This document shows, piece by piece, positions 5,400 through 64,000 of a stretch of DNA of 64,000 nucleotides (its first letter is position 1; every line of letters begins with the position of its first letter). Origin of the DNA: an uncultured Verrucomicrobiota bacterium (lineage in GTDB: Bacteria > Verrucomicrobiota > Kiritimatiellia > CAIQIC01 > Lenti-01). Location: positions 929 through 64,928 of the forward strand of contig CAZGMQ010000009.1 of NCBI GenBank assembly GCA_964526745.1, in the 5' to 3' direction. Made by a program: the position numbers and the translations under genes. Below the pieces are notes generated by a model. It searched no databases, was not told where the DNA came from, and worked only from the letters and a program-made list of their open reading frames with translations.

Positions 5400-6791
5400 A
5401 TGAAGAAATTGTTACTACTAAGTCTGATTTTCCTTTTTTGCGTAGGCACAATTGCTTTTGCACAGGCCACGCTGCCAACCAGTCATTCCGGACCGTGGAA
5501 GGTGGGGCCGTTACCGTCGGGATGGACCCAGAACGGCTTGGGGAATGATTATAGCTCGGACTATGACAAGAGTGGGGAGAATGCGGCAAAATTCGACGGG
5601 TCGGGCGATACCCTTCAAATCAATTTTAGCGGTGCGGCAAGCGCAGTGTCCTATTGGACTAAGGGGAATAGCTTATCGGGGGCTTATACCTATAAAATCC
5701 AGGAGTCGGTTGATGGTTCAACTTGGACGGATGTGGTCACCTATAATAGTGGGAACCCTATATCAGGAACGGCAACCCAGTACGAACAGGACTTGCTGTC
5801 ATCCTCTCGCTACCTCAAGTTTCTTTATGTGAACAAGGACAACGGTAACGTGGGCCTTGATGGGGTTACGATTGCAGGATCTGGAGTTTCGTTTATTCCA
5901 TCTGGCGCCCAAAGCATTCCGGTGAGTTATACGCTGTCGCTGGGGATTTCGATTACACCGGCAGGTAGCACGATGCAGAGCTGGACTTTCCTGCCTTCGA
6001 ACTATGCCGGGACGGTAAGCATGTCTGCTGATACCTTCAACTTCACGCCCGCCGAAGCCGATGATGGAAACGTTTATACGCTACAGGTCATTTCGATGAA
6101 CCCGGTCAGCACGGGATCGGTGGACGTTACGGTGACCTCCTATGTGCTGCCTGATCCATATATATGTACCTTTGAAGATGGTAGTAAATCAGGTTATGCC
6201 GCTGATATTGTGGAGTTAAACGACAAGTGGTGGAATCTGGACGGGATTTTGATTGGGACGACTGAAGATGACAAAAAAATTGGAAACAAGTCGGCTCGCT
6301 TAAAATACACGCCGGAGGATGGGGTAGACGCGATGACAGTCCAGTCGAAGGTCCTTGCTAACGGTATTGGAAATATTTCGATGTGGTATGGCCCCTATGG
6401 CGAGCACGGAAGCAATGCCCCCACCCTTGCCATCGAAATCAGCGAGAATTTGGTATCCGGCTGGATTGAAGTGGGTCAAGTGGACGCAGGGGCAGTGACG
6501 AATCTGACCGAATATTCGACGGATGTTGATGTGAATGTACCCGTTTATGTTCGAATTCGCGGAGTCGGTGGTACGGAGGATAATAGTGCCAACTTTGATA
6601 ATATCACCATCACCCCTTATCAGGCAGCAACGGGTTATGAGGCCTTCCTTCTGGAGTACAATGTGACGCCGGGGGATCCGGGAACGGCGACGGGCGATGA
6701 TCTGGATGACGACGGGTGGACGAACCAGCAGGAGTTCGATGATTATCCTACCAATTCCTACAATCCGTACGACAAAGCGATTCATCCGTAA
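5400..6791 (+). CDS. Secreted hypothetical protein with a signal peptide and an acidic Ca-binding-like C-terminus (DDLDDDGW...); low-GC gene.
   Basis: ORF track. N-terminus MKKLLLLSLIFLFCVGTIAFAQA. A GGGAG Shine-Dalgarno lies upstream. Coding GC is visibly lower than its neighbours. AT-rich repeat regions flank it on both sides. Confidence 0.6.
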   Translation: MKKLLLLSLIFLFCVGTIAFAQATLPTSHSGPWKVGPLPSGWTQNGLGNDYSSDYDKSGENAAKFDGSGDTLQINFSGAASAVSYWTKGNSLSGAYTYKIQESVDGSTWTDVVTYNSGNPISGTATQYEQDLLSSSRYLKFLYVNKDNGNVGLDGVTIAGSGVSFIPSGAQSIPVSYTLSLGISITPAGSTMQSWTFLPSNYAGTVSMSADTFNFTPAEADDGNVYTLQVISMNPVSTGSVDVTVTSYVLPDPYICTFEDGSKSGYAADIVELNDKWWNLDGILIGTTEDDKKIGNKSARLKYTPEDGVDAMTVQSKVLANGIGNISMWYGPYGEHGSNAPTLAIEISENLVSGWIEVGQVDAGAVTNLTEYSTDVDVNVPVYVRIRGVGGTEDNSANFDNITITPYQAATGYEAFLLEYNVTPGDPGTATGDDLDDDGWTNQQEFDDYPTNSYNPYDKAIHP

Positions 6792-12367: not shown

Positions 12368-13501
12368 ATGGCAGAAGCAGAAACAGCCAGGATCAGCACG
12401 GCACAGCAGGGGGATGCCACGCTGGAAGTCTCCTTTTCGGGGGCTTTTGTTTTAGCCGCTTCAGCCCCTCAGCAGATTCAGGCATTACAGGAACTTCCGG
12501 CATCTATTCATAAGCTGGTTCTGAAGGATGAGGGCATCACCGAATGGGACAGCGCTCTGCTGATTCTGCTGATGGAAATCAAGCAGCGCTGCGAGAAGCA
12601 GGAGGTCGAGTTGGATTTCTCCGGTTTGCCTAAAGGCGCGCAGCAGATGATCCAGCTGGCGTCTGAAGTTCCCGAGCGCAAAGGCGCCGCCCATGACGGG
12701 AAGCGGGATTCCTTTCTGGTTCGCATCGGAAAAAAGAGTCAGAGCACCTGGGGGGAGGTCACGGGGTTTGTGACGTTTCTCGGGGCAGCGACCATCAGTG
12801 TGGGGCGGATGCTGACCGGTCGGGCGCAATACCGGCATTCTGAATTCTGGGCCATCATTCAGGAATGCGGCCCGAAGGCGTTGGGGATTGTGACCATCAT
12901 CAGCGTGCTGGTCGGGGCGATTCTGGCCTTTGTCGGCGCGATGCAGCTGCAGATGTTTGGGGCTCAGATTCTGGTGGCGAACCTCGTCGGGATGGGCATG
13001 GTGGTGGAAATGGGAGCCCTGATGACCGGCATTATCCTGGCCGGACGGACAGGGGCATCTTTTGCGGCCCAGATCGGCACCATGCAGGTCAATGAAGAGA
13101 TTGATGCGCTGCGAACCATGGGGATTCCTCCGATGGACTATCTGGTCCTTCCCCGACTGGTCGCCTTGGTGATCATGACGCCGCTTCTGGTGATCTATGC
13201 CGATGTGCTGGGCATTCTGGGTGGAGCCATCATCGGTATTTTCGCGCTGGATATCCCGCCGGTTCTCTTTTTCAACCAGACTTTTTCCTCGATTTCGCTC
13301 TGGCATTGCGCCCAGGGCCTGATTAAGGGCAGCACCTTCGGCCTGCTGGTGGCCATTATGGGATGCCTGCGGGGCATGCAGTGCGGACGCAGCGCTTCCG
13401 CAGTGGGAGAAGCCACCACATCGGCGGTGGTCTCCGGCATCGTGATGATCGTTGTGGCCGATGCCATCTGGACCTATATCTTTATGACGGTGGGTATGTG
13501 A
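12368..13501 (+). CDS. mlaE: Mla-type ABC permease (MlaE family) with an N-terminal STAS domain.
   Basis: An N-terminal roughly 100 aa STAS-like domain is followed by multi-TM MlaE-like permease sequence. It is first in a 4-gene operon. Confidence 0.7.
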   Translation: MAEAETARISTAQQGDATLEVSFSGAFVLAASAPQQIQALQELPASIHKLVLKDEGITEWDSALLILLMEIKQRCEKQEVELDFSGLPKGAQQMIQLASEVPERKGAAHDGKRDSFLVRIGKKSQSTWGEVTGFVTFLGAATISVGRMLTGRAQYRHSEFWAIIQECGPKALGIVTIISVLVGAILAFVGAMQLQMFGAQILVANLVGMGMVVEMGALMTGIILAGRTGASFAAQIGTMQVNEEIDALRTMGIPPMDYLVLPRLVALVIMTPLLVIYADVLGILGGAIIGIFALDIPPVLFFNQTFSSISLWHCAQGLIKGSTFGLLVAIMGCLRGMQCGRSASAVGEATTSAVVSGIVMIVVADAIWTYIFMTVGM

Positions 13502-41560: not shown

Positions 41561-43015
41561 TCATCTGTTCAGTTTGTAGCGGAAGAATCCGGCCGTGCCC
41601 TGTACCGGCGCATTCGGGGTCCATGCCACTGGAAACAGATTCGGCGTGTATTCCTTCACGGTCGTGAAGCCGGGCAGAGCGGGGGAGGGGGAGGCTGGGT
41701 CGGTCGAAATCTCAATGAGCGGATGCAGGACACCCACCGCATCCAGATCGAAGCCGCCGGAGCCCCAGGTCGGGGTCGGATCATAGATCGGATTGCTATA
41801 GCTGTCCGTCACCGAACCGTCGCCGAACACATCGGCCAGCCGCACGTGAGTCACACGAAGCGTGTCCAGTCCGGGGGTCCCGGCCAGTTCCCGCAGATCG
41901 AACGGCGTGCCATTCCCCTGCAGATGTTTGCCGGCGAATCCACCATAGGAGGTTGGATCGGAAGTATTCATCGCGCCATAGGTGTCGATGGGGTCGGGCT
42001 CCAAGCTGTGGTTCGCAAAACGGATAAAGTTCGTGCCGTCGGAGGAAACTTCGACAAAGGCCAGCTCCAGAAAATCCTCCGTGAAGGAATTCTCGAACAC
42101 GGCGAAGTCCGGTCCCGGTCCGTCCGTGATGGGCAGAGGGAAGGTCAGCGTGATCGTGCCGCTGTCGCCAAGACTGACCACATTGGTCGAGCCGTTAAAT
42201 CTATCGCCGAGTTCCGCCGCGCCCAGCGCGTTGCTGGCATGCATGAACGGATTGGTCACATTCAGGCCCGGCACATAGGCGGCTACGCCGCTTGCCCAGC
42301 ACAGAATGGCAGGATTCGTCGACGCGATCCCGTCGGAGCTGTCCGCATAGGCATAGGTCAGGTCTGCCGCCGCAAAATACATTGGCGTGTTGGCACCCCA
42401 TTCACCCATATCGGTGGTCACCAGTGTCCCGACGATCGAGACCACCTCCGGCGGCATCCAGGAGAGGTCCAGCGTGGACCAGTTCGTCTGGATGAACGAT
42501 TTTCCATCGCGGAAGTCGGCGAGATAATGATTGGTGACCGCCATGACAGAACCTTCGATATCGCTGGCGGCTAGTGTCAGCACAAAGAAATCGCCGTTGG
42601 TGAAGGCGCGGGCCGGGAAGGAGCCGTTCCGGACCGCTTCGGCTGCCCAGGCCGTATTGTTGATGCGAACCGATTTCGGCGCAGCGGGCAGGTCGAAGCT
42701 GATTTCCGGGGCGGGGTCCCAACTGCTGTGATAGGCTACCGCATAGGCATTCGATAGCGATTCCGCCGCCCCGTATTGATTTGCATAGGTACCGTTGGTC
42801 GTGTTGTTCACTGTGGAGAAGGCAAACCCCGCCCACGAATCATACAGAGCGGAATGGAAATAGGTATTGAGAAAGGTGACCGCTTCATCCGTGGACGGCT
42901 GACTGTTCACAACGCTGTCCGGTGTGGGCACCAGCGCATCGAACGACACGACGGTTTGCGCCGCCCACAAAGGTGGAGAGAAAACGAGCATCAACAGGAT
43001 TAAAAAACGCCGCAT
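41561..43015 (-). CDS. Secreted DUF4465-like protein; candidate cobalamin-binding/acquisition protein.
   Basis: Signal peptide [21 protein letters not shown]-terminal [21 protein letters not shown]...NAYAVAY pattern recalled for DUF4465. Preceded by a cobalamin riboswitch. Confidence 0.55.
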
Positions 43016-43039: not shown

Positions 43040-43250
43040 GCGAGGGCATTCAGTTACAGTTTCTCCGACGTCTCGTCTTCTGGCTTACGGCAATCTACTC
43101 TTCCACCTTCTCCCGCCCGCGAGGGGGCGAAATGGCTTTGCTGGAATTTCGGAACCGATTACAGCGGCGCGACCGCGCGGGATTCTCACCCGCTTCCGTT
43201 AGTCGCCGGAGGGGTCTCCAACAAGGAGACACTTCCGCACCCTAGCACCC
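43040..43250 (-). promoter_or_regulatory. Cobalamin (B12) riboswitch in the 5' leader of the 41561-43015 gene.
   Basis: Minus-strand RNA contains GGAAGCGGGUGAGAAUCCCGCGCGGUCGCGCCGCUGUAAUCGGUUCC (matches the conserved GGUGxxAAUCC...GCCxCUGUAA core). A B12-box-like UAAGCCAGAAGACGAGAC lies about 60 nt before the AUG. A CCCU..AGGG hairpin overlaps the ribosome-binding site. Confidence 0.72.
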
Positions 43251-43516
43251 CGCTTTGCCCTCCTTCAAGCCGCGATTCTTTTGGTCGGCATTTTGGATCC
43301 AAAACAGCCCAAAATCCCTCCATAAATAGTTCCACACCCCTCCGCCGGTTTTGCCGCGAAAAATCGAAAAAACGGCCGAAAAAAGTCCTTGTTGATCAAA
43401 AAAGCAACGGAGGGAAATGATTGAAGGACGTGGAATCAGGTTGAATTAGGTTGAATGTGCCTTTAAACAGGGGCTTTTCCTAGCGTGGCGCCTCGATTGT
43501 CATCGATCAGAATGAA

Positions 43517-43574
43517 AAGGGTCTGAATGGGATATTCGTAAGGGTCTGGATACTGGCGTCTAAGGGTCAGAAAT
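43517..43574. repeat. Three direct AAGGGTC(T/A)G(A/G)AT repeats spaced 22-23 bp, at the left border of the phage-derived block. More copies lie inside the next 1.6 kb.
   Basis: aagggtctgaat (43517), aagggtctggat (43540), aagggtcagaaat (43562, overlapping the dam stop). Further AAGGGTC copies near 43661, 44051, 44195, 44527 (doubled), 45085. Confidence 0.6.
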
Positions 43575-44331
43575 TCTGGATGATCAGCTCTGATCTCTGG
43601 ACCTTTCGGCTTGCTGCTGATGACCCGACGGAATACCCCAGCTTGACCTCTGTCTGCTGGAAGGGTCTAAAAATTGACCGCACCTCTTTGCAGTTCCCCA
43701 GGGACAGAAGGAACCTTCCCTTGATGCCGGCCAGCAAATCCGCCAGGGCCTGGAACCGATCGAATGAGACCGCGTAGTCATCTGTTGAGTGAAAGTATGG
43801 CGGATCGATGAAGAACAGCGTGTGAGGCCGATCGTAGCGCGTCAGGCAGTCAAAGGCATCCAGATGCTCGATGTTGACCTTCTCCAAACGCCAGTGAACA
43901 GCCAGAAGGGTTTCTGCAATAGAACTCAGGTTCAGGGCCGGTGACCCGAGCGTTTTCATCCCATAGACCCGGCCTTTCGGTTTTCCACCAAAGCAGAGGC
44001 GTTGTAGATAGAAATACCGAACAGCTCTCTGAATATCCGTAAGGGTCTCCGGCCGCTTCATTTTCTCGATTTCGAATATCTCTCGGGACACTACGGCCCA
44101 CTTGTAATACTCTATGAAGGGTTCCAGATGATTCTGAATGACTCTCCAGAATGTGACCAGCTCGGAGTCTGCGTCATTGATCACTTCTGCCTTGGAAGGG
44201 TCCTTTTGGAATAGGACCCAGGCGGCTCCACAGAAGGGTTCGCAGTAGCAGACGTGATCCTCGGGGATCCGGGCAATGATTCTTTTGGCGAGGCGGCTCT
44301 TCCCGCCGAGGTAGGCAAAGGGACTATTCAT
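43567..44331 (-). CDS. dam: DNA adenine methyltransferase (Dam / D12 class).
   Basis: FAYLGGKSRL, CEPFCGAAWV (motif I) and FIDPPY (motif IV). Confidence 0.8.
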   Translation of the reverse strand: MNSPFAYLGGKSRLAKRIIARIPEDHVCYCEPFCGAAWVLFQKDPSKAEVINDADSELVTFWRVIQNHLEPFIEYYKWAVVSREIFEIEKMKRPETLTDIQRAVRYFYLQRLCFGGKPKGRVYGMKTLGSPALNLSSIAETLLAVHWRLEKVNIEHLDAFDCLTRYDRPHTLFFIDPPYFHSTDDYAVSFDRFQALADLLAGIKGRFLLSLGNCKEVRSIFRPFQQTEVKLGYSVGSSAASRKVQRSELIIQNF

Positions 44332-44487
44332 CAGAACGAACTTCCTATACCGTGCTTCCTGACTTCGGGCCAGTCTGGAGGGACCGTCATTGGCACGGAC
44401 TGCCGGGAATTAATCTTCCGGTGGATTGAGTGGTTGCACCCACTGAATCGGTTCCCCGGACACTCTCACACGAGAGGCCGGAAATGG

Positions 44488-46003
44488 TTATATCAGGCCG
44501 TTGATGGCATTGGCTAAAAGGGTCTGTTCGATTGGGTCTGTGTCCGGAGGCTGGAGCAGCTGGTCCTGGATGGCGGATAGTGCTGCTTCTGGATTTGTGC
44601 TTTCGCGGAGGATCCGCGGGATGTTGGCGTAGCGTTCGCGGAAGTGCCGCGCGACGGCCGCGGTGCCGGCGTCTGCAATGGCATCGGCCTGGTCAGCATT
44701 ATCGGTGTTCGCGGCGAAAATAGGGGCTGCCGCCGACCTCCCGGTCGGCGGCGAGGACTGTCTGCGGGAGATGCTGTATGCGCTGGACGGGGATGCCGAG
44801 GCGTTCGGAGGCCGTTGAAAGACCATCATCGGTTGGTTCAAGGCCTGCCTCATACAGATTGGAGAGGAGTTCGGAGGTGCGCTTCACCTCTTCGGTCGTG
44901 TCGCCGGCGAAGCTGATTGTGGGAGCCCGGCCAGGATAGCCATTGAGTTGCAGCCAGGGTGCCACCACCTGATGTCGGAGCGTATTTCCAAGGTTGCGAG
45001 AATCAAACTTCCGAATGTCATCCCGGACATCCCCCTGGAGATCCGCAGTCCCGGACCCCATTCCGGTCGGTGATGTTTCGGATGAAAGGGTCTGCCCCAG
45101 GATCAGCCTGGAGATCTCCCGCCGGCAACTGGTCTTAAACTTCTCGAAACCCTCCCCTGAGTCGCGGGCCGCTTCTTTCAGCTCGATCGAAGAGTCACCC
45201 GAAAGGACCAGGCCGCCCAGCTGCGTGGCATATGAAATGGCCGACTCAAGGATCCGGCGATCATGGTTGTCATTTGAATCCGTTTTCCCGACCATGAACG
45301 GCGAGCCGTAGCGGCCGAGGAATCGTGCCCACCAGGTCGTGGCCATGGCGGAGAGCAGCCAGAGGAAGAAGATTGCCCGCATGGGTCCACCGAACCGGTC
45401 CGGGGATGTCAGGGTATGGCCTCGATGCAGGATGTATCGTGTGGAGTCCAGAGGCTCCGCATCGATGAATCCACAAGTTTCTTTCTCTGTGACAATGGCC
45501 TGTCCATTCTTATCCCATCCGATGAGGCGATACGGAACCGGAACCAGTTCGGAGATCATATAGCGCCGGCCCAGCTCCGGACATGCCGGATCCGCAGGGG
45601 CAAACACCTTTTCGGCGATTGAAAGCGGGAAAATCACGGCATCCAGAAGATGATTGCAGCACAGATCTAGAGTATCGGATTGACGAAGCATCAGTTCTGC
45701 CGCATCGGCAGCCTCGACATCCTTCGGGTTGTCTTTGTCCCATGGCGCTACCATGATGGCATCGCCAATGACGGCATTCTTTCGCTGGAAAAGGGTTGCC
45801 TGAATATGGGTATCTTGCAGGACTACATCCCGGCAGAGTTGCCACAGCTGGCTGGAATTGCCCTGTTCCGACATCCGGATGATAGCCGCGACGCGATCGA
45901 CATCCAAATTGGTGGTGCGGAGCGACTGTTCATCGCGGGTTGAAACCGGGGTCAGACGACCCTGGCTGGGTGCTTTGGTTTTCTTTTTCGGTTTTTTAGA
46001 CAT
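44488..46003 (-). pseudogene. Mu-gp29-like portal protein (DUF935), apparently split by a frameshift near 44700-44760.
   Basis: 434 aa ORF 44699-46003. A roughly 70 aa continuation in another frame (ORF 44488-44853) overlaps the same DNA. Together they give about 505 aa, the expected portal length. Confidence 0.5.
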
Positions 46004-46012
46004 GCCGTTCTC

Positions 46013-47524
46013 CTATGACAAAAGGTTTCCGCTGAATGGGGTGCCGATGTTCACGGCCTTTGCTTCGATCTTCCCGCCCCGCTTGTTCAGGGCGTAGAGG
46101 GCGAGCTTCCCGCCATCGAATGTGTCCGCGTGATTGCCGGCGTTATCCAATTCGTTATCAAATCCGCCCTTTACCTTTTTAGCCAGGCGCCGATCCTCTT
46201 TGACCCACCTATCCGGTGGCATGGCGATTTGAGAATCTTCGTAGACCTCGACATACCGCTGGCCGGTATATGTTTTCATATTCATCGATTGACCTTGATA
46301 GTCGATCGTTTCGGATGAAGAGCACAGCATCACACGGGTGTATTTCCGGAACTCTTTCCGCACATTTGCGGCATAGTATTTTTCATTCGATGAATCCACA
46401 GCCAGACCGGAAGCCCGTCGTCCCGTCGCATCTTGACATGATTCAAGGATTTCACGCAGAAGGGCTTTTGCCTCATCCGGGTTTGCCTCTTTGAAGCGGA
46501 ATACCAGCCGTTCCACATATAGGTACTGCGACACCTTCTGCGTCACGACGATGCTGGAAGGGTTAGACATCTTGTTGGTGGTGGTTGCGACATCATACCC
46601 GATGGCATATGGATCGCTGGTCATCGATATGGCCCAATCCGCCGGCAGATCATTTTCGGCTGCCACGCAGCTCATGCGGTAACCGAGTTCCTGTGCCGCT
46701 CCGATAGCGGACAGCGGAATGGCTGCGGTGCCGCCGACGATGAATTTGAGCGCATAGGAGCGGTCCCAGGTGTCCCTGTTGAAATAGTTCTTGCGATGTT
46801 CATCCGGAGAAATTTGAGCACCGGATTTCATATCGTACAGGTGAATGCCAGCCAGATCGGCATCCCAAGCATCGACGCGATGGACAGGGATACCTAGCTG
46901 GGATGTGTAGGTGTTCCCGCTTGGATTATTTTCAAACTCTGTTCCGGGTTCTGGGGCGGCCAGCTCGTAGGAGAAGTGGGCGTCATCTGACGGTGGCGTG
47001 GTAGCCATGATGAGATGGAATGTTGGATCCCTAGAGATGATAGGTTCCATTTCACCGAAGAGAGCGCGGAAATCCTTGATGAATCCGATTTCATCCATGA
47101 AAACCCAGCCAGAGTATCCGCGCGCCGTCGCGATATTTGGTGCGATGACCTTCATTCGAGAAACAACGTGTTCAGAATGGCGGAAGGTGACTTCGAGGCG
47201 GCCCTGATCGAACAGATCCATTAGATCACTATCTTCGAGTCCTTCCCCATTCGATTCAATGATGACCCCATTGTCTATCGAGACATCACGGAGCGTTTGT
47301 AACAGTTCGCCAAAGATCTGCGTGGCTTTGAACGGAAGTTCAGATCCGACAGATAACGATGCCGATACGAATGTACAAAGGATGCCAGGATTCTCCAGCA
47401 TGACCTGAAGGATCTTGAAAGCAAAAAGGGTGGATTTTCCGGCCTGGCGCCGCCAGAGAAGCAGGCACACGCGCAGGGGTTTCATCCAGCGCGAAGCAAA
47501 CTTCTGATAGCGGGTGAGTTCCAT
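46013..47524 (-). CDS. Terminase large subunit.
   Basis: Walker A WRRQAGKST, Walker B VFMDEIGF, C-terminal nuclease-like acidic motifs; 503 aa. Confidence 0.75.
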   Translation of the reverse strand: MELTRYQKFASRWMKPLRVCLLLWRRQAGKSTLFAFKILQVMLENPGILCTFVSASLSVGSELPFKATQIFGELLQTLRDVSIDNGVIIESNGEGLEDSDLMDLFDQGRLEVTFRHSEHVVSRMKVIAPNIATARGYSGWVFMDEIGFIKDFRALFGEMEPIISRDPTFHLIMATTPPSDDAHFSYELAAPEPGTEFENNPSGNTYTSQLGIPVHRVDAWDADLAGIHLYDMKSGAQISPDEHRKNYFNRDTWDRSYALKFIVGGTAAIPLSAIGAAQELGYRMSCVAAENDLPADWAISMTSDPYAIGYDVATTTNKMSNPSSIVVTQKVSQYLYVERLVFRFKEANPDEAKALLREILESCQDATGRRASGLAVDSSNEKYYAANVRKEFRKYTRVMLCSSSETIDYQGQSMNMKTYTGQRYVEVYEDSQIAMPPDRWVKEDRRLAKKVKGGFDNELDNAGNHADTFDGGKLALYALNKRGGKIEAKAVNIGTPFSGNLLS

Positions 47525-48087
47525 TAATCCTTTTCCATGTCAGCCATGAGGTCGATGAGCTGCTGAACCTGGATTGACCTCTCAGCGCCGGAAGTGGCGA
47601 TCTTCTGAGCGCGTTCATCCTTAAACCAGGAGAGGAATTGGTTTGCGACCTGGAAGCGGAACTTGTCGCGATCCAGCTCTGCTGCATCCTGGGCGAGTTC
47701 GAGGCGCTGCTTGTCGAGCTCCAGGCTTTTGGAGCGGGTGACGGCCTGTTTGACGGAAGCCAGAACCTTGGCGGCCTTGATGGGATCCAGATCTGGATCC
47801 GAAAGGCTGTCGACCAGGTCGAGCATCGTGCGGTCGACCATATCGAACCCATCGGCCTCGATCTCCCGGCGGATGGATTCCGCGCGGGTCCGACGCTCTT
47901 CCAAATTCCGCTGCTGTTTCAGCCAGGCTTGATAATGACGGGGAGACTTCTTGAATGAAGAGTAGTTCTGAGGCTTGTAGGGTCCATAGCCGTGACCCTT
48001 CAGCCAGGCATTGAGCTGCTTCCAGTTCTTACGGTCCCGGATCATGAAACAGAGTTCTTCCCGGACTTCGTACGGGAGGCGCGTCAT
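47524..48087 (-). CDS. Mu-gp27-like DUF3486 protein (small terminase-like).
   Basis: Internal start MTRLPYEVREELCFMIRDRKNWKQLNAWLKGHGY... resembles Mu gp27 (ITRLPQELRDEL...). The ORF-track 5' extension is out of character. Confidence 0.6.
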   Translation of the reverse strand: MTRLPYEVREELCFMIRDRKNWKQLNAWLKGHGYGPYKPQNYSSFKKSPRHYQAWLKQQRNLEERRTRAESIRREIEADGFDMVDRTMLDLVDSLSDPDLDPIKAAKVLASVKQAVTRSKSLELDKQRLELAQDAAELDRDKFRFQVANQFLSWFKDERAQKIATSGAERSIQVQQLIDLMADMEKD

Positions 48088-48100
48088 CGGGATATAAGGG

Positions 48101-48382
48101 TTAAGGGTACTGGCGCTCACGGAACGTGACTCCTTCTGAGGTGGCCTTATAGTCGACCAGGCCGGACAAGGGACGATTGACGCGCTTGACCAGGCCGAAG
48201 CCTTCCAGGACCGCAAGGGCGTCGGCCACATGCGATTCATCAAACTCGCCATCCACGGCACCCGCGCGCCGGATCCGGTTGGTCAATGTTTCAATGGAGA
48301 ACTTATGCGCTGCCCGATCGGCCAGATGGCAGATCAGCGCTTCGCGGAGCTGTTCTTTTCGCTGTGTGTCTTGATCCTTCAT
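48101..48382 (-). CDS. Hypothetical small protein.
   Basis: ORF track; probable start MKDQDTQRKEQL. Confidence 0.35.
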   Translation of the reverse strand: MKDQDTQRKEQLREALICHLADRAAHKFSIETLTNRIRRAGAVDGEFDESHVADALAVLEGFGLVKRVNRPLSGLVDYKATSEGVTFRERQYP

Positions 48383-48733: not shown

Positions 48734-49972
48734 CTATTCCTCTGAAAAAGATGCCGACGCTGGCCGGCCGCTGGGCATGGCAGCAGCCGGGGCGACGGCA
48801 AGATTGGTTGATGTGTTTCGAGTGGAAATGGGCGGGACGGCCGAGCCGATGGCTTGGATGGTGGCGACATCGGACGGCCCGGCCCATTTGAAGTGATAGA
48901 AGATCCTGGCGACTTCGCCGCGGTCGGCTCCCTCTTTGATCCAGGCATAGGCCACATCCGGCTTTCCGGGACCTTCCAGGCCGGAACACAGCTGCTGAAT
49001 GATCATTCCTGTGTCACTGACATTCAGGCGGTTGACCGGGAAGGTGTCGGTAATCTTGAAAGGATGGACGGCCGCCCAGTCAAATGGTGCCGGGCAGGAG
49101 GACGGGCGGGATCCGTGATTGTAGATCAGTTTGAACCCGAGCGCATCGAATTCGGAAGCCATTTGCTTTTCGAGCTGAGTCCCGTAGCTGGTGCGGCCGG
49201 ATTCGGCCACGGGCTGCAGCAAGACGTTGGCCGGCCCACCGGCTTTGACTACACCAATGGCCCAGCTGACCATCTCCGGGGAGTGCTGCAGATCCACGCC
49301 GGCATCGCCATACTTCCGCGGTCCGCCACGGCTTCCCTGGTTGTCGTTGAAGACGCTGTTGAAAACCCACATGCCATTTGCACGGCAATGGCGCAGCAGC
49401 AGAGCATAGGCCGCCTCGGTCCATGCTCGGAATTCTGTTTTGTTGGCGGCGTAACGGCCCCAGGATGAAAACTCAATGTCATAGATTCGGACGCCCCATA
49501 ATGTGCAGGCGTCGAGATCCGCCTGGAGAATAGCCAGGGACTCTTCCAGAGTGGCGCCGCCATTGGCCCAGCGGTTTGCCCTCCCATAGCCAGCGAGGGT
49601 CCGGCCGACCTGCAGCGGAGGCAGCGCGGCGGATGGCGCCGGCGGGTCAACATTCGGGTCTATGACTGGATCTGGGTCCGCTTCATCCTGGTTGACCACC
49701 TCGGCAAAATTCGCGGCGATCCCGTTCAGTTGCTCCATCAGGGCATCGTTCGACATGACGGCCTCCGCGAGGGCCACGACATTCGGGTTTCCGGCGATGG
49801 CGGAAGCGATGGCAACAGCATCAGCCGGATCGATGGAGGCCGCAACGGACCCGATCTGGCCGACCAGGGCATTCGGATTGAGATCCAGCTGGTTTGTCGA
49901 TGTGCAGCCAACGCCGCTCCACCCGATCAGAGCAAGCAGCAACGCGATGACTATAAATTTCATGTCCTTCAT
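48734..49972 (-). CDS. Secreted lipoprotein, glycoside-hydrolase-like (possible cell-wall hydrolase).
   Basis: Lipobox LIGWSGVGC; 412 aa; start overlaps the caspase-like gene's stop. Confidence 0.4.
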   Translation of the reverse strand: MKDMKFIVIALLLALIGWSGVGCTSTNQLDLNPNALVGQIGSVAASIDPADAVAIASAIAGNPNVVALAEAVMSNDALMEQLNGIAANFAEVVNQDEADPDPVIDPNVDPPAPSAALPPLQVGRTLAGYGRANRWANGGATLEESLAILQADLDACTLWGVRIYDIEFSSWGRYAANKTEFRAWTEAAYALLLRHCRANGMWVFNSVFNDNQGSRGGPRKYGDAGVDLQHSPEMVSWAIGVVKAGGPANVLLQPVAESGRTSYGTQLEKQMASEFDALGFKLIYNHGSRPSSCPAPFDWAAVHPFKITDTFPVNRLNVSDTGMIIQQLCSGLEGPGKPDVAYAWIKEGADRGEVARIFYHFKWAGPSDVATIQAIGSAVPPISTRNTSTNLAVAPAAAMPSGRPASASFSEE

Positions 49973-50691
49973 TCTTGATCCTCTTTGGGTTGGAGCTTCA
50001 TTGCCGGGAGATCCCGGAAAGTGGTGGCGCCGTATTCCTCATAGTGCGGAACCTGGTTGCGCGGCATGATGGCCGCAGCGGCATCGAACCATTCCTTATA
50101 AGAGAGCTTTCCGTCGAAAGTGTTGAGCAGCGCTTGAGTGAAGACGCCGCCCGAGTCATCGCCATAGGAGGATTCACCATCTCCGGATCCGCCGAAGTGG
50201 ATCAGAGAGGCCCGGAAGCTGCGAGGCATGGATCCGGAAATAGATCGGGCCCGAAAATTGGTGCCGGAATTGCAGGTGTCAGAAATGAACAGGATCCGGA
50301 TGCCGGCCGGCGCCTCTTTCCAGAGCTTCCGGAGGATGTCATCCGAGAGCTGGCCATCCCATAGGCAAAGGGTCTCATCGAGGCCGTCTTCCTCATCGCC
50401 GTCGGTGTCCGGGATCTGTCCGCCGTGTCCGCTTATATATAGGATAAAGAGATCGCCAGCCTTCATCTGCTTCCAGGCCTTCCGCGTGGCGCGGATCAGA
50501 GCCTCTGATGTGGCCTCCCTATTGTGGAAGAGATCCGTCTGGATTCCCCCCCCCGAGCAGAGCAGTCCGAACATCTGGGCATCCACATCGCATCCGGGGC
50601 AGTTGCCATTCCATCCATCATAGGCATTTGGATCCACATTGGTGAGGCCGGCCACAACGGCATGGGCATTCTTCGGAAGGTTTTTACGCAT
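49969..50691 (-). CDS. Standalone caspase-like peptidase C14 domain protein.
   Basis: LFILYISGHGGQ (catalytic His) and ILFISDTCNSG (catalytic Cys, D-x-C-x-SG). N-terminal HAVVAGLTNVDPNAYDGWNGNCPGCDVDAQMF caspase-fold start. 240 aa with no signal peptide. Confidence 0.7.
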   Translation of the reverse strand: MRKNLPKNAHAVVAGLTNVDPNAYDGWNGNCPGCDVDAQMFGLLCSGGGIQTDLFHNREATSEALIRATRKAWKQMKAGDLFILYISGHGGQIPDTDGDEEDGLDETLCLWDGQLSDDILRKLWKEAPAGIRILFISDTCNSGTNFRARSISGSMPRSFRASLIHFGGSGDGESSYGDDSGGVFTQALLNTFDGKLSYKEWFDAAAAIMPRNQVPHYEEYGATTFRDLPAMKLQPKEDQE

Positions 50692-53384: not shown

Positions 53385-53726
53385 CTATTTCCTCAGTTTC
53401 TTCTCCACCGCAGCCACGCGCAACAGGATTTCATCCAGCTTGGCCATTATGGCGCTGGCACCAGGCAAATAGTCCGCCGGATACTCGCGGGTGACCAGCG
53501 GAGGCGTGTCGATTAACTGTTGAACCTTGGGCTTCTCGGGCGGTGCAATCCCGGATTCTCTCTCAGCTTCATCAATTTTAATGAGCATACGGCGGCTAGG
53601 AGATGTCTTGCCAGACTTCCATTGGGACATAGCTGGCGTAGAACAGCCGAGCCGTGTCGCTGTCTTTTGCCAAGTCCAGCCATTGGTATCCATTAACCGG
53701 ACGATTCTGTCCCATGAAAAGGCCAT
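53385..53726 (-). CDS. Phage repressor-like HTH (XRE-type) DNA-binding protein.
   Basis: HTH WTWQKTATRLGCSTPAMSQWKSG. Transcribed divergently from the Ner-like gene. Confidence 0.6.
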   Translation of the reverse strand: MAFSWDRIVRLMDTNGWTWQKTATRLGCSTPAMSQWKSGKTSPSRRMLIKIDEAERESGIAPPEKPKVQQLIDTPPLVTREYPADYLPGASAIMAKLDEILLRVAAVEKKLRK

Positions 53727-53786
53727 GTAAGTATATGTAAGTTTTCCTTGACTGTTTTCTTATACGTTCTTATATTGCCTTACATG
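53724..53786. promoter_or_regulatory. Divergent promoter/operator region between the repressor and the Ner-like gene.
   Basis: Inverted repeat CATGTAAG (53724-31) ... CTTACATG (53779-86); each arm overlaps one of the two start codons. Direct repeat ATGTAAG at 53735. TTGACT (-35) at 53748 and TATATT (-10) at 53771. Confidence 0.55.
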
Positions 53787-54002
53787 ATGCGGCAACCTAT
53801 AGAGAAAAACAAGGGCAAACGCCCATTCGTCATAAGCGGCATCTGCGCGGCTGCTGTCGAACTCGGAGTAACACGTACACACCTTTACCGCGTCCTTCAG
53901 GGAGAGCGGAAAAGCCCGAGAATTGAATCCAGTGAGTTTTATAGGCAGTCCATGGCCGCAAAGCGCCAGTTTGAAAACCAACCGAAAGGGCACGAACAAT
54001 GA
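53784..54002 (+). CDS. Ner-like small HTH DNA-binding protein.
   Basis: HTH AAAVELGVTRTHLYRVLQGERKS. The ORF-track start at 53748 is the TTG of the -35 hexamer; the true start is probably the ATG at 53784. Confidence 0.55.
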   Translation: MMRQPIEKNKGKRPFVISGICAAAVELGVTRTHLYRVLQGERKSPRIESSEFYRQSMAAKRQFENQPKGHEQ

Positions 54003-54892: not shown

Positions 54893-55428
54893 TGAAGCGG
54901 GCAACCAAGGTTATTTCTTCCAGAGGAAAGGGAAAAGAGGAATTGGCTTCCACCCGCGCGGATAGGGCTCTCCAAACGGCCAGCGGACCAAAGCGCGGCC
55001 AATTTCCCAATAAGCCAAACAGGCGCGGCCAATCTCTTCGGAAAGGCCCGTCAGCGAATCTGGTTTCGGCTGAAGGCTCGAAAAAGCCTCGTGTACGGGC
55101 TTTGCGGAAGTCAAAAGCTGAAGGGCAAGGAAGCGAATACGAAACACTTTGCTTGGCGGCCAAATCTGTTGCCAGCGGTCTCTCATTTCTTGAGTTCCTG
55201 CGATGTAGTCAAGGGCGGCATCCATGTGTTTCTCGGACCATTCGCACCAGGAAGGAAGCCCAATTCTTTGCAGGATTAGTCGAAGACGCTTTATATCTTC
55301 TTCCCGAAACGTGCGGCGCAGTTCTGCTTCGGATCGCTCGGCAAATGAAGACGGAATTTCGGGGATTGAAGTTACCACGGGACAAAATCTATCAAACCGC
55401 GCGGCGCGGTGGAAGCCGAAAGGGTTAA
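54889..55428 (+). CDS. Highly basic hypothetical protein (uncertain; low GC3).
   Basis: ATGA overlap with the ParB-like stop; its stop lies 2 nt before the downstream ATG after an AAGGG Shine-Dalgarno. GC3 is about 50%, against about 75% in the neighbouring genes. An alternative antisense ORF exists at 54911-55483. Confidence 0.35.
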   Translation: MMKRATKVISSRGKGKEELASTRADRALQTASGPKRGQFPNKPNRRGQSLRKGPSANLVSAEGSKKPRVRALRKSKAEGQGSEYETLCLAAKSVASGLSFLEFLRCSQGRHPCVSRTIRTRKEAQFFAGLVEDALYLLPETCGAVLLRIARQMKTEFRGLKLPRDKIYQTARRGGSRKG

Positions 55429-55430
55429 GA

Positions 55431-57302
55431 ATGTCCACCCGCCCGTACAACGACCGCGAACAGGCCCGGATTGCCGTATGCAAGAAGGCGCAGGCGCTGA
55501 TTGCCGACGGGGCGACAATGAAACGGGCGGCAAAGGCGGCGGGAACCTCCCAGGGCTCGCTGGAGCGGTGGATGCGGGCATGGCGTAGTGAAGGGCCGGA
55601 CGGCCTGCGGGACGACTACGGTGCGGTGGGGCGGCCGGCGGTGGCGGATTGCCTGGACCAAACATCCATCGATTTCATCCGTCGCAAAGCGGCGAAGTGC
55701 GGCAGCATGGCGCTAACCTATCAGTTCTTCGTTGACGATCCGGCCTGTCCCCAGGAACTCCGGGATTATCTGATTCCCAGGCTAACCAGTGGCAAACCCC
55801 TTTCCCTTCCTCTTTCCCTGCGCCGCGCGGCGAATGTGATTCCCGATCTGGCCGCGCGGCATCGAAGCGATGTCGCCTTCGGGCACATCGGCTTCAAGAC
55901 ACGTCACAGCGATATGGTGATTGATCCGCGCACGGGCCAGGAGCGCCGTCTGATGGCCGGCGACATTTACCTTTCTGACGATATGTCCACCAATCATCCC
56001 TTCTGGTTCGAGCTGCCCGATGGCGAGATCAAGACGCGGGCCGATCGGGGGAGCAAGCTTGCGGAGCGCTTTGGCGTGGCCGTGGGCCGCCAAGGTCTCT
56101 ATACCATTGATGCTCGCGGCAAGTGGCTCGGGTGCGAACTGATCGCCCGCCCGACGGATGCCTATACCTCCGCGGATGTCCTGCGGCACTTCCGCCGGAT
56201 CCTGGCGGAGTTCGGCTTGCCGCGCATTGCCTGGATCCTCGAAAAGGGCGTCTGGATGGCCCGGACGGTCGATGGCCGCATGAAGGTGCTCATTGACGAC
56301 GATGCTCGTGAAGAGACCGTCGCCGGTCTTTCCACGCTTGGATTCAGCGTCAATCATGTCCACACCTCCGAGGGCAAGGCCCTGATTGAGGGGGCGTTCC
56401 ACCACTTCCAGGATATCTGCGACCTGATGGAGCTTCCGAACGTGGGCCGCAAGCGTGGCGAGATGGAGCGGGTTGAAAAGGTGATGACCCGCATCCGCAG
56501 CGGCGTGATCCATCCGCGCGATGCCGGGATCCCGCATGTCACCGCCCAGGTCCTGAATCTGAACAAGGCCCAGGTGTTCTTCAATGGCAAGCACAAGAAT
56601 GGCCGCATCCAGCACGGCGTTCCCGACGAGGTCTGGCTGCGCGACACCACCACTCATCCGCTCCGAAAACTTGAACCTGGCCACATGGGAGTCTTCATGC
56701 CCGCAAAATACGCAACGATGATTCGCCAGGGGCATGCTGACAAGACACTGGAGGGAACGACCTATCGCTTCCACAACGAGGTGTTCGGACGGCTGGGCGC
56801 GGGATACCGCCTCGCAATAGCATTCGATCCAGGCGAACCGCAGGCCGGCGCCGAGGTCTACAATCTGGAGACCGGCAGCCGGAACATCGACCGCCATTCC
56901 CCCAACGCGTGGATCTGCCACGCGGAACTGGAGATCGACTCGCCACTATATGGCTACTCGCCGGAAGTGGCCGAGGCCACCCGCCGGAAGAAGAAGCACA
57001 CCCGCGCCTTCCAGAGCGCGTATGCGGGCACCGGCCTCTTCGGCAAGGGCGCGGGCCGAGCCATCGAGCGGCGCGAGGCCGACGGCCGCCTGATCCGCAT
57101 GGAAACCAATATCGGGGATGCTGGAGGAACGGATCGACCCGGTTCGTGTCGTGCCCTACCGGTCGGAACAGAATCCAGCATCCCCACCAATCGAACGGTC
57201 CGCAGGAAAGAACTCACAGCTAAGCAAGTCATCAATGCAGAGGCCAAGGCCGATGCCCTGGAGGCTCGCCTGCGAGATCGAGGAATGTTGCTGCCGCAAT
57301 GA
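55431..57302 (+). CDS. Mu A-like protein (putative transposase) with an N-terminal HTH. The DDE core is not confidently recognised.
   Basis: 623 aa. N-terminal HTH (GATMKRAAKAAGTSQGSLERWMRAW). Lies upstream of a MuB-like ATPase. The ORF-track start at 55224 is an out-of-character extension. Confidence 0.5.
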   Translation: MSTRPYNDREQARIAVCKKAQALIADGATMKRAAKAAGTSQGSLERWMRAWRSEGPDGLRDDYGAVGRPAVADCLDQTSIDFIRRKAAKCGSMALTYQFFVDDPACPQELRDYLIPRLTSGKPLSLPLSLRRAANVIPDLAARHRSDVAFGHIGFKTRHSDMVIDPRTGQERRLMAGDIYLSDDMSTNHPFWFELPDGEIKTRADRGSKLAERFGVAVGRQGLYTIDARGKWLGCELIARPTDAYTSADVLRHFRRILAEFGLPRIAWILEKGVWMARTVDGRMKVLIDDDAREETVAGLSTLGFSVNHVHTSEGKALIEGAFHHFQDICDLMELPNVGRKRGEMERVEKVMTRIRSGVIHPRDAGIPHVTAQVLNLNKAQVFFNGKHKNGRIQHGVPDEVWLRDTTTHPLRKLEPGHMGVFMPAKYATMIRQGHADKTLEGTTYRFHNEVFGRLGAGYRLAIAFDPGEPQAGAEVYNLETGSRNIDRHSPNAWICHAELEIDSPLYGYSPEVAEATRRKKKHTRAFQSAYAGTGLFGKGAGRAIERREADGRLIRMETNIGDAGGTDRPGSCRALPVGTESSIPTNRTVRRKELTAKQVINAEAKADALEARLRDRGMLLPQ

Positions 57303-57334: not shown

Positions 57335-58330
57335 ATGGCAACGCTCAAAAATAAAGACAAGAAAAAGACCCCAGCGGAAGAGCTGGTGGCACTCGCCCAG
57401 GTCATTCGCGAATGGCAGATAGGCAAAGGGTATTCCATCGCAGCGCTGCTGCGGAAATACGCAGGCCTCGGCTCCGACCGGACCTATAACCGGCTCGTGA
57501 CCGGCGATACGTCCGACCTGAATGTCGAGAAACAGCTGCTAAACTATCAGACCGTCTGGTCACTCATTGAAGCCGTCGGCGACAAAGATCGCGATCGGGA
57601 AGAGTTCTATGATGATTTCTCCTCTGCCGTTCAGTTGCGCCGGGCCGCCATGGAAGTTTTTGTTGAAACTGGGATCAACCGGTTTCTCCTGGTCCAGGGC
57701 GACACCGGATCCGGCAAAACCACCGCTGCCCTGCTGCTCCAGAAGCGCTATGGCGCCCATCGTGTGCGGAGGATTGAGCTCTCGCCGTGGCTGAATGACA
57801 GCCCGCTGGCCTTTCTGGTTATGATTATTGAAGCCTTCGGCCAGGAAGCCCCTCACGGCAGTCAACAATGCTGGAAAAAGGCTGTTGAACTGCTTGGCGC
57901 CGGCCGCTGCTGCCTTGTCTTTGATGAGCTGCACCACGCCGGACCACGGGTCCTCAACACCATCAAGAGCCTGATCAACGCCACACCAGGCGAATTCATC
58001 GGCCTCACGATGAAAACCCTGTGGTATCGCCTCGAAAAGAAGAGTTATGAAGAAGTCCGGCAGCTGACCGGCAACCGCCTCGCCGAGCGGATCCAGCTCG
58101 ATCGGATGAATCAATCCGACCTGGTCAAGTATTTGAGCCGGCGCCTTCCGAAGCTGGAAAAGGGAGCCGACTTCGGCGCCGCCACCATGCTCGCGGAAAA
58201 CTCCAGAGGCAAAGGAAACATGGCCTTTGCTCGAGCCGTCTGCCGCGCCGCTGTCGAGCGATACGAAGACAAACCCATCACCATTCAGGATTTCGCGGCC
58301 GTCGTGGCCTCGGAACGCCAGCGCAGATAG
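57335..58330 (+). CDS. MuB-like AAA+ ATPase (transposition helper).
   Basis: N-terminal HTH-like segment, Walker A GDTGSGKTT, Walker B CLVFDELHH. C-terminal AENSRGKGNMAFARAVCRAA resembles the MuB C-terminal region. Confidence 0.6.
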   Translation: MATLKNKDKKKTPAEELVALAQVIREWQIGKGYSIAALLRKYAGLGSDRTYNRLVTGDTSDLNVEKQLLNYQTVWSLIEAVGDKDRDREEFYDDFSSAVQLRRAAMEVFVETGINRFLLVQGDTGSGKTTAALLLQKRYGAHRVRRIELSPWLNDSPLAFLVMIIEAFGQEAPHGSQQCWKKAVELLGAGRCCLVFDELHHAGPRVLNTIKSLINATPGEFIGLTMKTLWYRLEKKSYEEVRQLTGNRLAERIQLDRMNQSDLVKYLSRRLPKLEKGADFGAATMLAENSRGKGNMAFARAVCRAAVERYEDKPITIQDFAAVVASERQRR

Positions 58331-62508: not shown

Positions 62509-64000
62509 ACCACTCATCGCTATAGAGCGTAGAGAAAATACTAGATGAAGGCAACTGCGGAAGGGTAACCGACCGTGGAGAGGAAGCCGGAGTTCAACAT
62601 TGTGAGCCTACGAACAGAAACAGCATATCAGGCCGACGAGCCGGGCAAGGTGGCACAACACACCGACGCCCATGGTTCAGGCTCGCAGGTAAATGCTGAG
62701 GTTGCACAGTTGCAGTTCGCGTTCTTATCTGGGGAGGTCCCGATGCCGCAAGGCGGTCGGGAAGTCAGCCGAAGGCATAGTACCCCACAGGCCCGTGGGG
62801 GAAGGCCCGAACCGGACAGGTGCATCTCGACCACCGACCCGCAGCCGACCGCGCAGAGTCCGAAGGGGCTAGCGATCGTGCTGGAGGAGTCGAATGGGAA
62901 GCATGGAGGGGCACAGGTCAACCAACTGGAACAGATCCTATCTCGGGAGAACATGCAGATGGCATGGAAACGGGTAAAGGCCAACAAAGGGGCGGCAGGT
63001 ATGGACGGCATGTCCATTGATGCCTTTCCCACGTTTGCCCGTCAACACTGGGAGCGGATCCGTTCAGCGCTTGAAAGGGGCGCCTATCGCCCGGCAGCGG
63101 TGCTGCGGGTGATGATTCCAAAAGCCACCGGAGGGCAGCGCCCTCTGGGAATCCCCACCGTGTTGGATCGAGTGATTCAACAAGCCATCGCCCAGGTCAT
63201 CGGACCTCTCTTCGACCCGCACTTCAGCACTCACAGCTACGGCTTTCGGCCGAAGCGGAGCGCGAGAATGGCACTGGAGGAGATGGAACGAGCCCATGGC
63301 GAGGGTCTACGCTTTGCCGTAGACTGCGACTTGAAGAGCTTCTTCGACACGGTGAACCATGGCTTGCTGATGAACAGGCTGGGGAGGAAGATACACGACA
63401 AGCGGGTGCTACGGCTGATCAGTCGCTACCTCAATGCCGGTGTCATCCTGCCAGATGGAGAGAGAGAGCCTACGCCATGCGGCGTGCCTCAGGGCGGCCC
63501 GCTCTCTCCGCTGCTGGCCAACGTCATGCTCGACGATCTGGATAAGGAGTTGGAAAAGCGAGAACTGCGGTTTACGCGCTATGCCGACGACTTTCTGATC
63601 TTCGTGCGCAGCCGGTCTGCCGCACAGCGTGTGCTGCGGTCGGTTGGACGGTTCATTGAAGGCAAGCTGGACCTGGTCATCAATCAGACAAAGAGCAAGG
63701 CGGCGCGCTTAGGCGAATGCACCTTCCTTGGGTTCACGATGAGCAGGGGGAAGCTGAAATGGACCGATGCCGCCGTGCAGCGGTTCAAGGAGCGCGTCAG
63801 AGAAATCACCAACCGAAGCAACGGGAAGAGTATGCGCCAGCGCATTCCCATCCTGCGCAGATATGTGATTGGCTGGTTGAACTACTACGGCCACAGCCAC
63901 AGCTATACGCAACTGCTCAAACTCGACCAATGGCTGCGCCGCCGTGTGCGGCTTTGCTATTGGAAACAGTGGAAGCGACCGCGAACCCGAAGGCGGCATC
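62432..64000 (+). mobile_element. Group II intron, 5' portion: domains I-III and the start of domain IV with its reverse-transcriptase ORF.
   Basis: GUGUG at 62432 or GUGUA at 62456, followed by CGCCCAGCAUGGGCG (like the Ll.LtrB 5' end GUGCGCCCAGAUAGGGUG). Structured RNA with GGUUAAAGUCCCCUG-type motifs, then the RT ORF. Confidence 0.75.
62878..64000 (+). CDS. Group II intron reverse transcriptase/maturase (partial, runs off the window).
   Basis: Open frame from 62524 to the window end. LEQILSRENMQMAWKRVKANKGAAGMDGMS (RT0/1), RPLGIPTVLDRVIQQA (RT2), GFRPKRSA (RT3), YADDFLIFV (RT5). Start is ambiguous: GTG at 62878 or ATG at 62743. Absent from the ORF track because it has no stop in the window. 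Confidence 0.85.
   Translation, partial: MLEESNGKHGGAQVNQLEQILSRENMQMAWKRVKANKGAAGMDGMSIDAFPTFARQHWERIRSALERGAYRPAAVLRVMIPKATGGQRPLGIPTVLDRVIQQAIAQVIGPLFDPHFSTHSYGFRPKRSARMALEEMERAHGEGLRFAVDCDLKSFFDTVNHGLLMNRLGRKIHDKRVLRLISRYLNAGVILPDGEREPTPCGVPQGGPLSPLLANVMLDDLDKELEKRELRFTRYADDFLIFVRSRSAAQRVLRSVGRFIEGKLDLVINQTKSKAARLGECTFLGFTMSRGKLKWTDAAVQRFKERVREITNRSNGKSMRQRIPILRRYVIGWLNYYGHSHSYTQLLKLDQWLRRRVRLCYWKQWKRPRTRRRH

Follow-up and report, generated by a model that had tools for sequence, protein, structure and literature searches.

The 64,000-nucleotide stretch analysed here (hereafter the window; positions 929 to 64,928 of contig CAZGMQ010000009.1, from an uncultured Verrucomicrobiota bacterium) carries, from position 43404 to past its right edge at 64000, part of a complete Mu-like transposable prophage, namely one of its arms along with the early region. 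The prophage most likely represents a previously undescribed lineage found in bacteria of the Planctomycetes-Verrucomicrobia-Chlamydiae (PVC) group, in metagenome-assembled genomes (MAGs) of Verrucomicrobiota, Lentisphaerae and Kiritimatiellaeota. The DNA to the left of about 43400 is host DNA, where a DUF4465 gene (41561-43015) is preceded by a cobalamin riboswitch (43075-43197, minus strand, 69.7 bits). About 200 bp upstream of this riboswitch, in a host intergenic or promoter region, lies the end of the prophage. Just inside the prophage, the end and the adjoining genes (dam, a small open reading frame (ORF) and the portal gene) contain repeats of the heptamer AAGGGTC, which are the subject of this work. 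The features of this end are as follows (numbers preceded by L designate related elements and loci).

43403-43436, plus strand: predicted terminus and degenerate terminal site, (a)GCAACGGAGGGAAATGATTGAAGGACGTGGAAT, which imperfectly repeats, in inverted orientation, the far-end termini of relatives (TGTAACCAAGCGAAATGTTTGAAAAGGGTC)
43421-43470, plus strand: conserved TTGAA block, copies phased by about 10-20 bp (43421, 43441, 43451), near-invariant, found at 10 dam-side ends
43512-43528, plus strand: site 1, ATGAAAAGGGTCTGAAT, core 43517-43523, invariant in all dam-side ends
43535-43551, plus strand: site 2, core 43540-43546, an additional 22-23 bp unit of the window and L079 only, with a 22-bp gap in the other relatives
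43557-43573, plus strand: site 3, AAGGGTCAGAAAT, core 43562-43568, overlapping the dam stop codon (43567-43569) and homologous to the second site of relatives
43661-43667, plus strand: fourth copy, within dam codons 221-223 (R-P-F)
44041-44047, plus strand: internal copy in dam (E-T-L), due to synonymous codon choice
44196-44202, plus strand: internal copy in dam (D-P-S), in another reading phase
44517-44542, plus strand: doubled internal copy AAAGGGTCTGTTCGATTGGGTCTGTG, that is AAAGGGTCTG then GGGTCTG, in the small ORF (Q-T-L), the AAGGGTC starting at 44518
45086-45092, plus strand: internal copy in the portal gene (Q-T-L), codons 304-306 of 434

The initial annotation, made from the letters alone, had described this cluster as far above expectation, and the counts bear it out. 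All eight AAGGGTC copies between 43517 and 45092 are on the plus strand, when a first-order Markov model predicts 0.106 in these 1580 bp (P(≥8) = 3e-13); under the same model, the five internal copies taken alone have P = 9e-8, and chance is excluded as the source of the cluster. The whole window contains 13 copies on both strands, and its 43.4 kb of host DNA only two, which answers the question of how frequent the motif is elsewhere; the 6-mer AAGGGT occurs there at 0.25/kb versus 6.5/kb at the element end. A Chi-like or genome-wide polar host motif was rejected, since AAGGGTC is not enriched in this host DNA. The first three copies had been read as AAGGGTC(T/A)G(A/G)AT repeats 22-23 bp apart that overlap the dam stop: the spacing (23 bp, then 22 bp) and the overlap stand, and the third repeat misfits the 12-mer at its last base. 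At least five further copies, one of them doubled, had been announced, and exactly five were found. Their predicted placement inside dam and the portal gene holds for dam and for 45086, but the copy at 44518 is in the small ORF, outside the portal gene. The GATC sites noted beside dam do exist (43505, 43582, 43592), two of the three lying in conserved Dam C-terminal codons, but GATC is not enriched (420 observed versus 432 expected in the window).

The genes of the prophage that bear on the function of these repeats are the following.

43567-44331, minus strand: D12-class N6-adenine DNA methyltransferase (dam-like; Pfam PF02086, E = 1e-21; phrog_56), last gene before the end
44488-44853, minus strand: small conserved ORF, between portal and dam
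44699-46003, minus strand: Mu-type portal protein (Pfam Portal_Mu, E = 8e-61), at most 29% identical to portals of Mu-like phages
46013-47524, minus strand: terminase large subunit (TerL; phrog_2, E = 1e-14), syntenic in all relatives
47524-48261: possible terminase small subunit (TerS), on the same arm as TerL and portal
53385-53726, minus strand: helix-turn-helix (HTH) repressor
53748-54002, plus strand: Ner-like protein
55224-57302, plus strand: A-like DDE transposase (HTH_23/28, phrog_310, fold match)
57335-58330, plus strand: MuB-like AAA+ ATPase (AAA_22, E = 7e-13; phrog_296 'DNA transposition protein', E = 4e-12)

On the plus strand, the Ner-like gene is followed by a gene for a 297-aa protein, a large HTH protein, the AAA_22 ATPase and a DUF3164 gene. 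The large protein, hereafter the A protein, has no Pfam rve match and no significant match in the PDB by single sequence or by profile, and tblastn against 50,697 phage records (INPHARED) gave no match; its identity was resolved solely by structure prediction and Foldseek. An AlphaFold model built with 20 homologues (pLDDT 74) was compared by Foldseek, and the best match was the MuA transpososome 4FCY (E = 2e-14, 566 aligned columns), followed by TnsB (from Tn7 and from CRISPR-associated transposons, CAST) and IstA. The A protein is therefore a transposase of the MuA/TnsB fold. The ORF as listed encodes 692 aa, its first 70 residues are modelled with a pLDDT around 30, and homologues have about 617 aa; the true start is probably near 55449, about 75 codons downstream of the listed one, leaving 55224-55448 as extra sequence.

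The gene order is odd for a Mu-like phage. The repressor-side arm contains the possible TerS, TerL, portal and dam genes, all read toward the end, and the other arm carries genes for a Mu F-like protein, a protease, the major head protein and tail proteins after A and B, an order kept in all relatives.

Relatives were gathered by portal and TerL searches, which yielded MAGs of Verrucomicrobiota, Lentisphaerae and Kiritimatiellaeota (L001-L006) and viral contigs (L020-L026); L007, matched by TerL, is a 16-kb contig of identical sequence that ends inside the element. These relatives keep the order end, dam, small ORF, portal, TerL and so on to the repressor, then divergent ner, A, B and DUF3164. 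In a 29.5-kb viral contig, the plus arm goes on to the Mu F-like head protein, the protease and the major head protein; its opposite contig end is still in coding DNA, about 1 kb before the far end.

When the non-coding DNA downstream of dam was aligned for the window, L002, L003 and L004, two GACCCTT cores 23 bp apart proved invariant, with variable 16-nt spacers between them, and the same invariant cores with variable spacers are present in L020, L022, L058, L079, L050, L080 and L087. At least ten related elements, from PVC MAGs, metagenomes and viral contigs, carry at this place the pair TGAAAAGGGTC-N16-AAGGGTC with a 23-bp period. Three cores, that is one extra 22-23 bp unit, are found in the window and L079, and two in seven other elements, so the number of sites evolves through tandem duplication of the unit.

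Beyond the cores, a variable stretch of about 45 bp leads to a near-invariant block of about 60 bp (...TTCAACC..TTCAACC..ATTCCACCTCCTTCAATCATTT...TTGC), after which homology ends, in four elements. This block corresponds to 43404-43470 in the window. The repeats had been placed at the left border of the phage block; homology with relatives extends to 43403/43404, moving that border 113 bp to the left of the first repeat, and the three clustered cores and the copy at 43661 all lie within 260 bp of the predicted terminus. One phage found in two insertion contexts (L070 versus L020/L055, with different flanks) places the terminus at TGCGGCGCGGCAAAATGATTGAAGG, 13 nt before AATGATTGAAGG. The flank of L038 reads by eye as coding sequence with a QMVGRGTR stretch that looks helicase-like. 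A terminal TG is present at the predicted dam-side terminus of L003, L004, L020, L058 and L079 and in six of eight far ends, and AG in the window, L002 and L022. When the far-end sequence GTAACCAAGCGAAATGTTTGAAAAGGGTCAAAT and the dam-side GCAACGGAGGGAAATGATTGAAGGACGTGGAAT are aligned by eye, 22 of 33 positions match, which indicates a degenerate terminal site on the dam side. The TTGAA copies of the adjacent block read GATTGAAGG, GGTTGAAT and GGTTGAAT in the window, L050 has five such copies, and the block is present at the dam-side end only; by analogy with Mu attL, it may be a packaging (pac) or host-factor site located in the spacer.

The opposite, tail-gene end of the element was identified in relatives. 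In L004, an inverted AAGGGTC pair is located at 5956 and 5979 (on the strand with portal on plus), about 6.5 kb from the dam-side pair (12441, 12464). On one side, the DNA between the two pairs encodes portal, dam and a TerL that is truncated; on the other, its genes are homologous to distal late genes found in the 29.5-kb viral contig (L027 17416-18385), which indicates a deletion derivative that has kept both ends. This defective derivative is about 6.6 kb long and its TerL is cut to residues 358-494. L004 is also the sole element with both flanks (5837-5960 and 12470-12580); these contain a 4-bp GACT direct repeat if the element runs from TG to CA, and no clean 5-bp repeat. The target-site duplication of Mu is 5 bp.

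Further far ends with a terminus followed by a pair were found in L029, L038, L043, L051, L065, L071, L086 and L092, with homologous late genes transcribed toward that end in L029, L038, L043 and L051. In the first seven of these the pair comes directly after the terminus (T)GTAAMC.AGCGAAA.G..; the more distant viral relative L092 ends with GTACCCGCGCATAATGATTGAAAAGGGTC-N16-AAAGGGTG. The inverted copies that the initial annotation had proposed to look for at the other end of the element are therefore present in L004 and in about eight other far ends of related elements. From the relatives, the far end of the window prophage itself is estimated to lie 10-15 kb beyond the window, and it would carry the inverted pair GACCCTTTTCA with a 23-bp period.

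Several of these ends came from a metagenome scan with TGAAAAGGGTC-N16-AAGGGTC, which returned 58 loci, about 18 of which are ends of this phage group: L032/44, L050, L055/66/70, L058, L079 and L080 are of the dam-side type with the AATGATTGAAGG/TTGAAT block, and L029, L038, L041 (identical to L004), L043, L051/85, L065, L071 and L086 are of the far-end type. Many of the loci are at contig ends, viral and metagenome contigs breaking at termini. Other matches, whose neighbours are host genes (SecA, PEP-CTERM, glycosyltransferases) or lack a Pfam match, were treated as chance or unrelated occurrences, and a scan of viral contigs with the terminal pattern CCTTCAATCATTT-N7-TTGC gave 11 matches, all attributed to chance. 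No second strict-pattern match was found in the 33-kb contig L022, and no motif pair in the DNA fetched for the distant relatives L093-L097 (about 30% tail-protein identity); L092 has one.

A separate group of marine metagenome contigs (L030, L031, L036, L053, L056, L057 and L077) displays three TGAAAAGGGTCGACGCTGCACG copies in about 90 bp, mostly at contig ends and next to genes without Pfam match. They may be the ends of another transposable element with the same core.

We consider it likely, with good confidence, that the AAGGGTC repeats are transposase-binding sites at one end of a Mu-like prophage, with a new recognition sequence. This was the lead idea of the initial annotation, and the inverted pairs of the relatives, the MuA/TnsB-fold transposase and the MuB-like ATPase support it at the level of sequence and predicted structure, alongside the motif statistics and the variable insertion contexts. 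The repeats, with core TGAAAAGGGTC(TG) and a spacing of 22-23 bp, or two helical turns, would be the end-recognition sites of the A protein. The dam-side end would be attL-like, with a degenerate terminal site (43404-43436), a spacer of about 90 bp containing the TTGAA array, full sites at 43517, 43540 and 43562 and a further copy at 43661; the tail-gene end of relatives would be attR-like, with two contiguous sites 23 bp apart beside the (T)GTAAMC terminus, in the orientation opposite to that of the dam side. If the elements behave as Mu does, these sites would be occupied by transposase monomers that bring both ends together in a transpososome cutting at the termini, and during synapsis the subterminal array at 43517-43568 would most likely bind the A protein in an accessory, L2/L3-like role. 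We infer the A protein as the binder of the repeats, and likewise the roles of single sites.

The initial annotation had also suggested packaging or regulatory sites, which fit poorly since the motif occupies both ends in inverted orientation. A pac signal read by the small terminase would agree with the adjacency of TerL, the possible TerS (47524-48261) and portal on this arm, with the dense internal copies specific to this arm, and with Mu, whose pac lies within the left end (attL). But the same pair stands inverted at the tail-gene end, beside the terminus, where headful packaging has no need of it, and the TTGAA-phased block at 43421-43470, restricted to the dam-side end, is a better pac candidate; we regard a packaging role of the repeats as very unlikely. 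Operators or centromere-like sites for a repressor, Ner-like or ParB-like protein, acting in dam or late transcription or in partition, are more improbable still. The element does encode an HTH repressor and a Ner-like protein, and direct repeats with a two-turn spacing also fit dimeric regulators or iterons. However, at both ends the sites follow the last gene and are away from promoters, no copies cluster in the divergent repressor/ner region, no Rep or partition gene was found, and inverted placement at two termini is the hallmark of transposon ends.

Comparison with Mu places the proposed transposase-binding sites in a familiar design. Reading the Mu ends directly, we located attL cores at 20, 125 and 165, and attR cores at 20 and 42, then the inverted R3. 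Both attL and attR have, as in the present elements, several transposase sites of about 22 bp per end, inverted between ends: the dam-side end resembles attL in its terminal site, spacer of about 100 bp and subsequent clustered sites, and the far end resembles attR in its contiguous sites beside the terminus, which are 22 bp apart in Mu. Each Mu end has three differently spaced MuA sites, and in vitro L1, R1 and R2 alone can be enough for a stable synaptic complex (PMC3145075). The combination of a MuA-fold transposase with a B-type ATPase, and a DNA-modification gene in last position before one end (mom in Mu, dam here), are further likenesses. The differences from Mu begin with the recognition sequence, TGAAAAGGGTC here and the unrelated ...RCGAAAR in Mu. 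No sequence similarity to MuA is detectable in the A protein, terminase and portal are on the repressor-side arm, transcribed toward the end and apart from the head and tail genes, extra motif copies reach about 1.7 kb into coding DNA, and the window does not keep the terminal TG.

The TnsB sites of Tn7 and CAST are also similar, with asymmetric ends, three to four spaced or contiguous sites of about 22 bp and a MuA-related DDE transposase, TnsB being among the best fold matches of the A protein; unlike in those transposons, no TnsA, TniQ or CRISPR components were found here, phage portal, terminase, head and tail genes are present, and insertion sites vary. The closest isolated phages by portal (24-29% identity) are Mu-like phages of Pseudomonas and Haemophilus (B3/D3112 group, SuMu), but neither the A protein nor the end DNA has a match in the 50,697 phage records, and host phyla and gene order differ. 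Our verdict is that this lineage of PVC phages combines a split morphogenesis layout with probable Mu-type transposase end sites of a new recognition sequence.

Several points weigh against the repeats being transposase sites of a Mu-type end. The end motif does not resemble the Mu att consensus, and none of the 50,697 phage records matched the end DNA in a blastn search; the ends would work like Mu ends yet are outside the Mu site family by sequence. The evidence for inverted ends comes from relatives, the far end of the window prophage being outside the window, and both ends are on one contig only in L004. The predicted terminal dinucleotide of the window is AG instead of TG, with A rather than T as first base, and the full sites are 113 bp from the terminus, leaving the cleavage-proximal task to a weakly matching terminal site. 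Some metagenome matches to the two-copy pattern are in non-phage contexts. Finally, the orientation of the motif in the left arm is confounded with gene orientation.

The copies inside coding DNA were analysed separately. They span three reading phases (R-P-F, E-T-L, D-P-S, Q-T-L and Q-T-L). The copy at 43661 has the same position in L004, L022 and L079, and one mismatch in L002 and L003. Those at 44041 and 44196 are common to the window and its closest relative L003 only, L004 and L022 encoding at 44041 the same PETLT peptide without the motif. The 44518 copy is also present in L003 and L020, and the 45086 copy in L003 and L004, whereas in L002 and L022 it is broken by a synonymous CAG>CAA change. 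In the remaining cases these peptides are encoded without the motif. Of the 7-mers, only 7.2% are conserved between L003 and the window, yet four of four deep copies are kept.

We compared the counts observed in dam, the small ORF and portal with those of 3000 shuffles of synonymous codons, which keep protein and codon usage. GACCCTT occurs five times versus 0.43 +/- 0.65 in the shuffles and ACCCTT nine times versus 1.43 +/- 1.1, with 0 of 3000 shuffles reaching five and nine, respectively. Since the shuffles fall short of the observed counts, neither codon usage nor the encoded peptides explain the internal copies as an artefact. A weaker excess is present in TerL and the genes beyond (5 versus 1.0, P = 0.003), and the right arm of the prophage shows none in such shuffles. 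The excess is repeated in L003, L004 and L002, is weak in L022 and absent from the distant L005 and L087; the lineages compared are not independent of each other. Between 43404 and 53726, AAGGGT is present 18 times on the plus strand and once on the minus strand, with 1.7 expected; its density peaks in the first 1.7 kb or so (about 5-6/kb) and tails off over about 7 kb, a pattern seen in five lineages, and the far ends have a weak excess only. The density of internal copies is a property of the dam-side arm common to close relatives.

Thr-Leu is encoded by ACC-CTT in 9 of 23 cases (39%) in prophage genes versus 4 of 81 (5%) in the host genes of the window. Codon or amino-acid bias, which the initial annotation had named as a possible source of the motif, was rejected as the cause of the internal copies by the synonymous shuffles and by this host codon-pair usage.

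The terminal array could nevertheless be the only functional part, the five deeper copies being by-products of ancestry, of (E/Q)-T-L peptides and of a phage habit of using the ACC-CTT codon pair. Three of the five copies do encode x-T-L in the same phase, the ACC-CTT preference of the prophage includes genes far from the end, and the sharing of 44041 and 44196 with L003 alone, like the synonymous changes that break the motif in L002 and L022, can be read in this sense. Against such an origin stand the shuffles, with no excess in the right arm, the rarity of ACC-CTT for T-L in host genes, the conservation of all four deep copies in the divergent L003, and a density that, in five lineages, declines away from the dam-side terminus. 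We consider a by-product origin possible but unlikely. In dam, the small ORF and portal, the deeper copies are kept by synonymous codon choice and appear to be under constraint at synonymous sites; they would probably serve the same protein as auxiliary sites of lower strength.

More tentative still is the proposal that the graded, orientation-locked array of cores that synonymous codon choice has placed in dam, the small ORF, portal and, in part, terminase is a functional internal landing pad of the transposase. If true, this landing pad could, for instance, stand in for an enhancer, protect against self-integration (cis-immunity), or act as a cue that couples the transposition ends to packaging. 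We know of no such internal landing-pad array described for Mu. The Ac/Ds and En/Spm elements carry many copies of a short transposase-binding motif over hundreds of base pairs inside their ends; they are an analogy for the internal copies only, belonging to another transposase superfamily, with sites outside coding sequence.

Two further features of the prophage were noted away from the end. Several genes without known function lie between TerL and the repressor. Among the genes of this region, a caspase-like Peptidase_C14 gene (49969-50691, minus strand, E = 3.5e-17) overlaps a gene for a 412-aa protein without known function (48734-49972, minus strand), a pair also conserved in L003; a PADLOC scan of the cargo genes gave one faint caspase match only. 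The pair is possibly a defence or abortive-infection cargo. Within the right arm, group II intron domains D1-D4 (104.6 and 43.8 bits) are located at 62559-62807 on the plus strand, and the intron ORF would extend past the window.

Both ends and the recognition motif are now defined for a lineage of uncultured transposable phages in PVC bacteria. The pattern TGAAAAGGGTC-N16-AAGGGTC is a practical probe: a single scan gave about 18 phage ends, and prophage boundaries can thereby be drawn where tools based on integrases or att sites fail. The Mu-like asymmetry of attL and attR, conserved at about 14% transposase identity, suggests an ancient transpososome architecture. The internal, synonymously encoded array is the sole part that could prove new, and its copies offer a testable case of an array of transposase sites within coding DNA.

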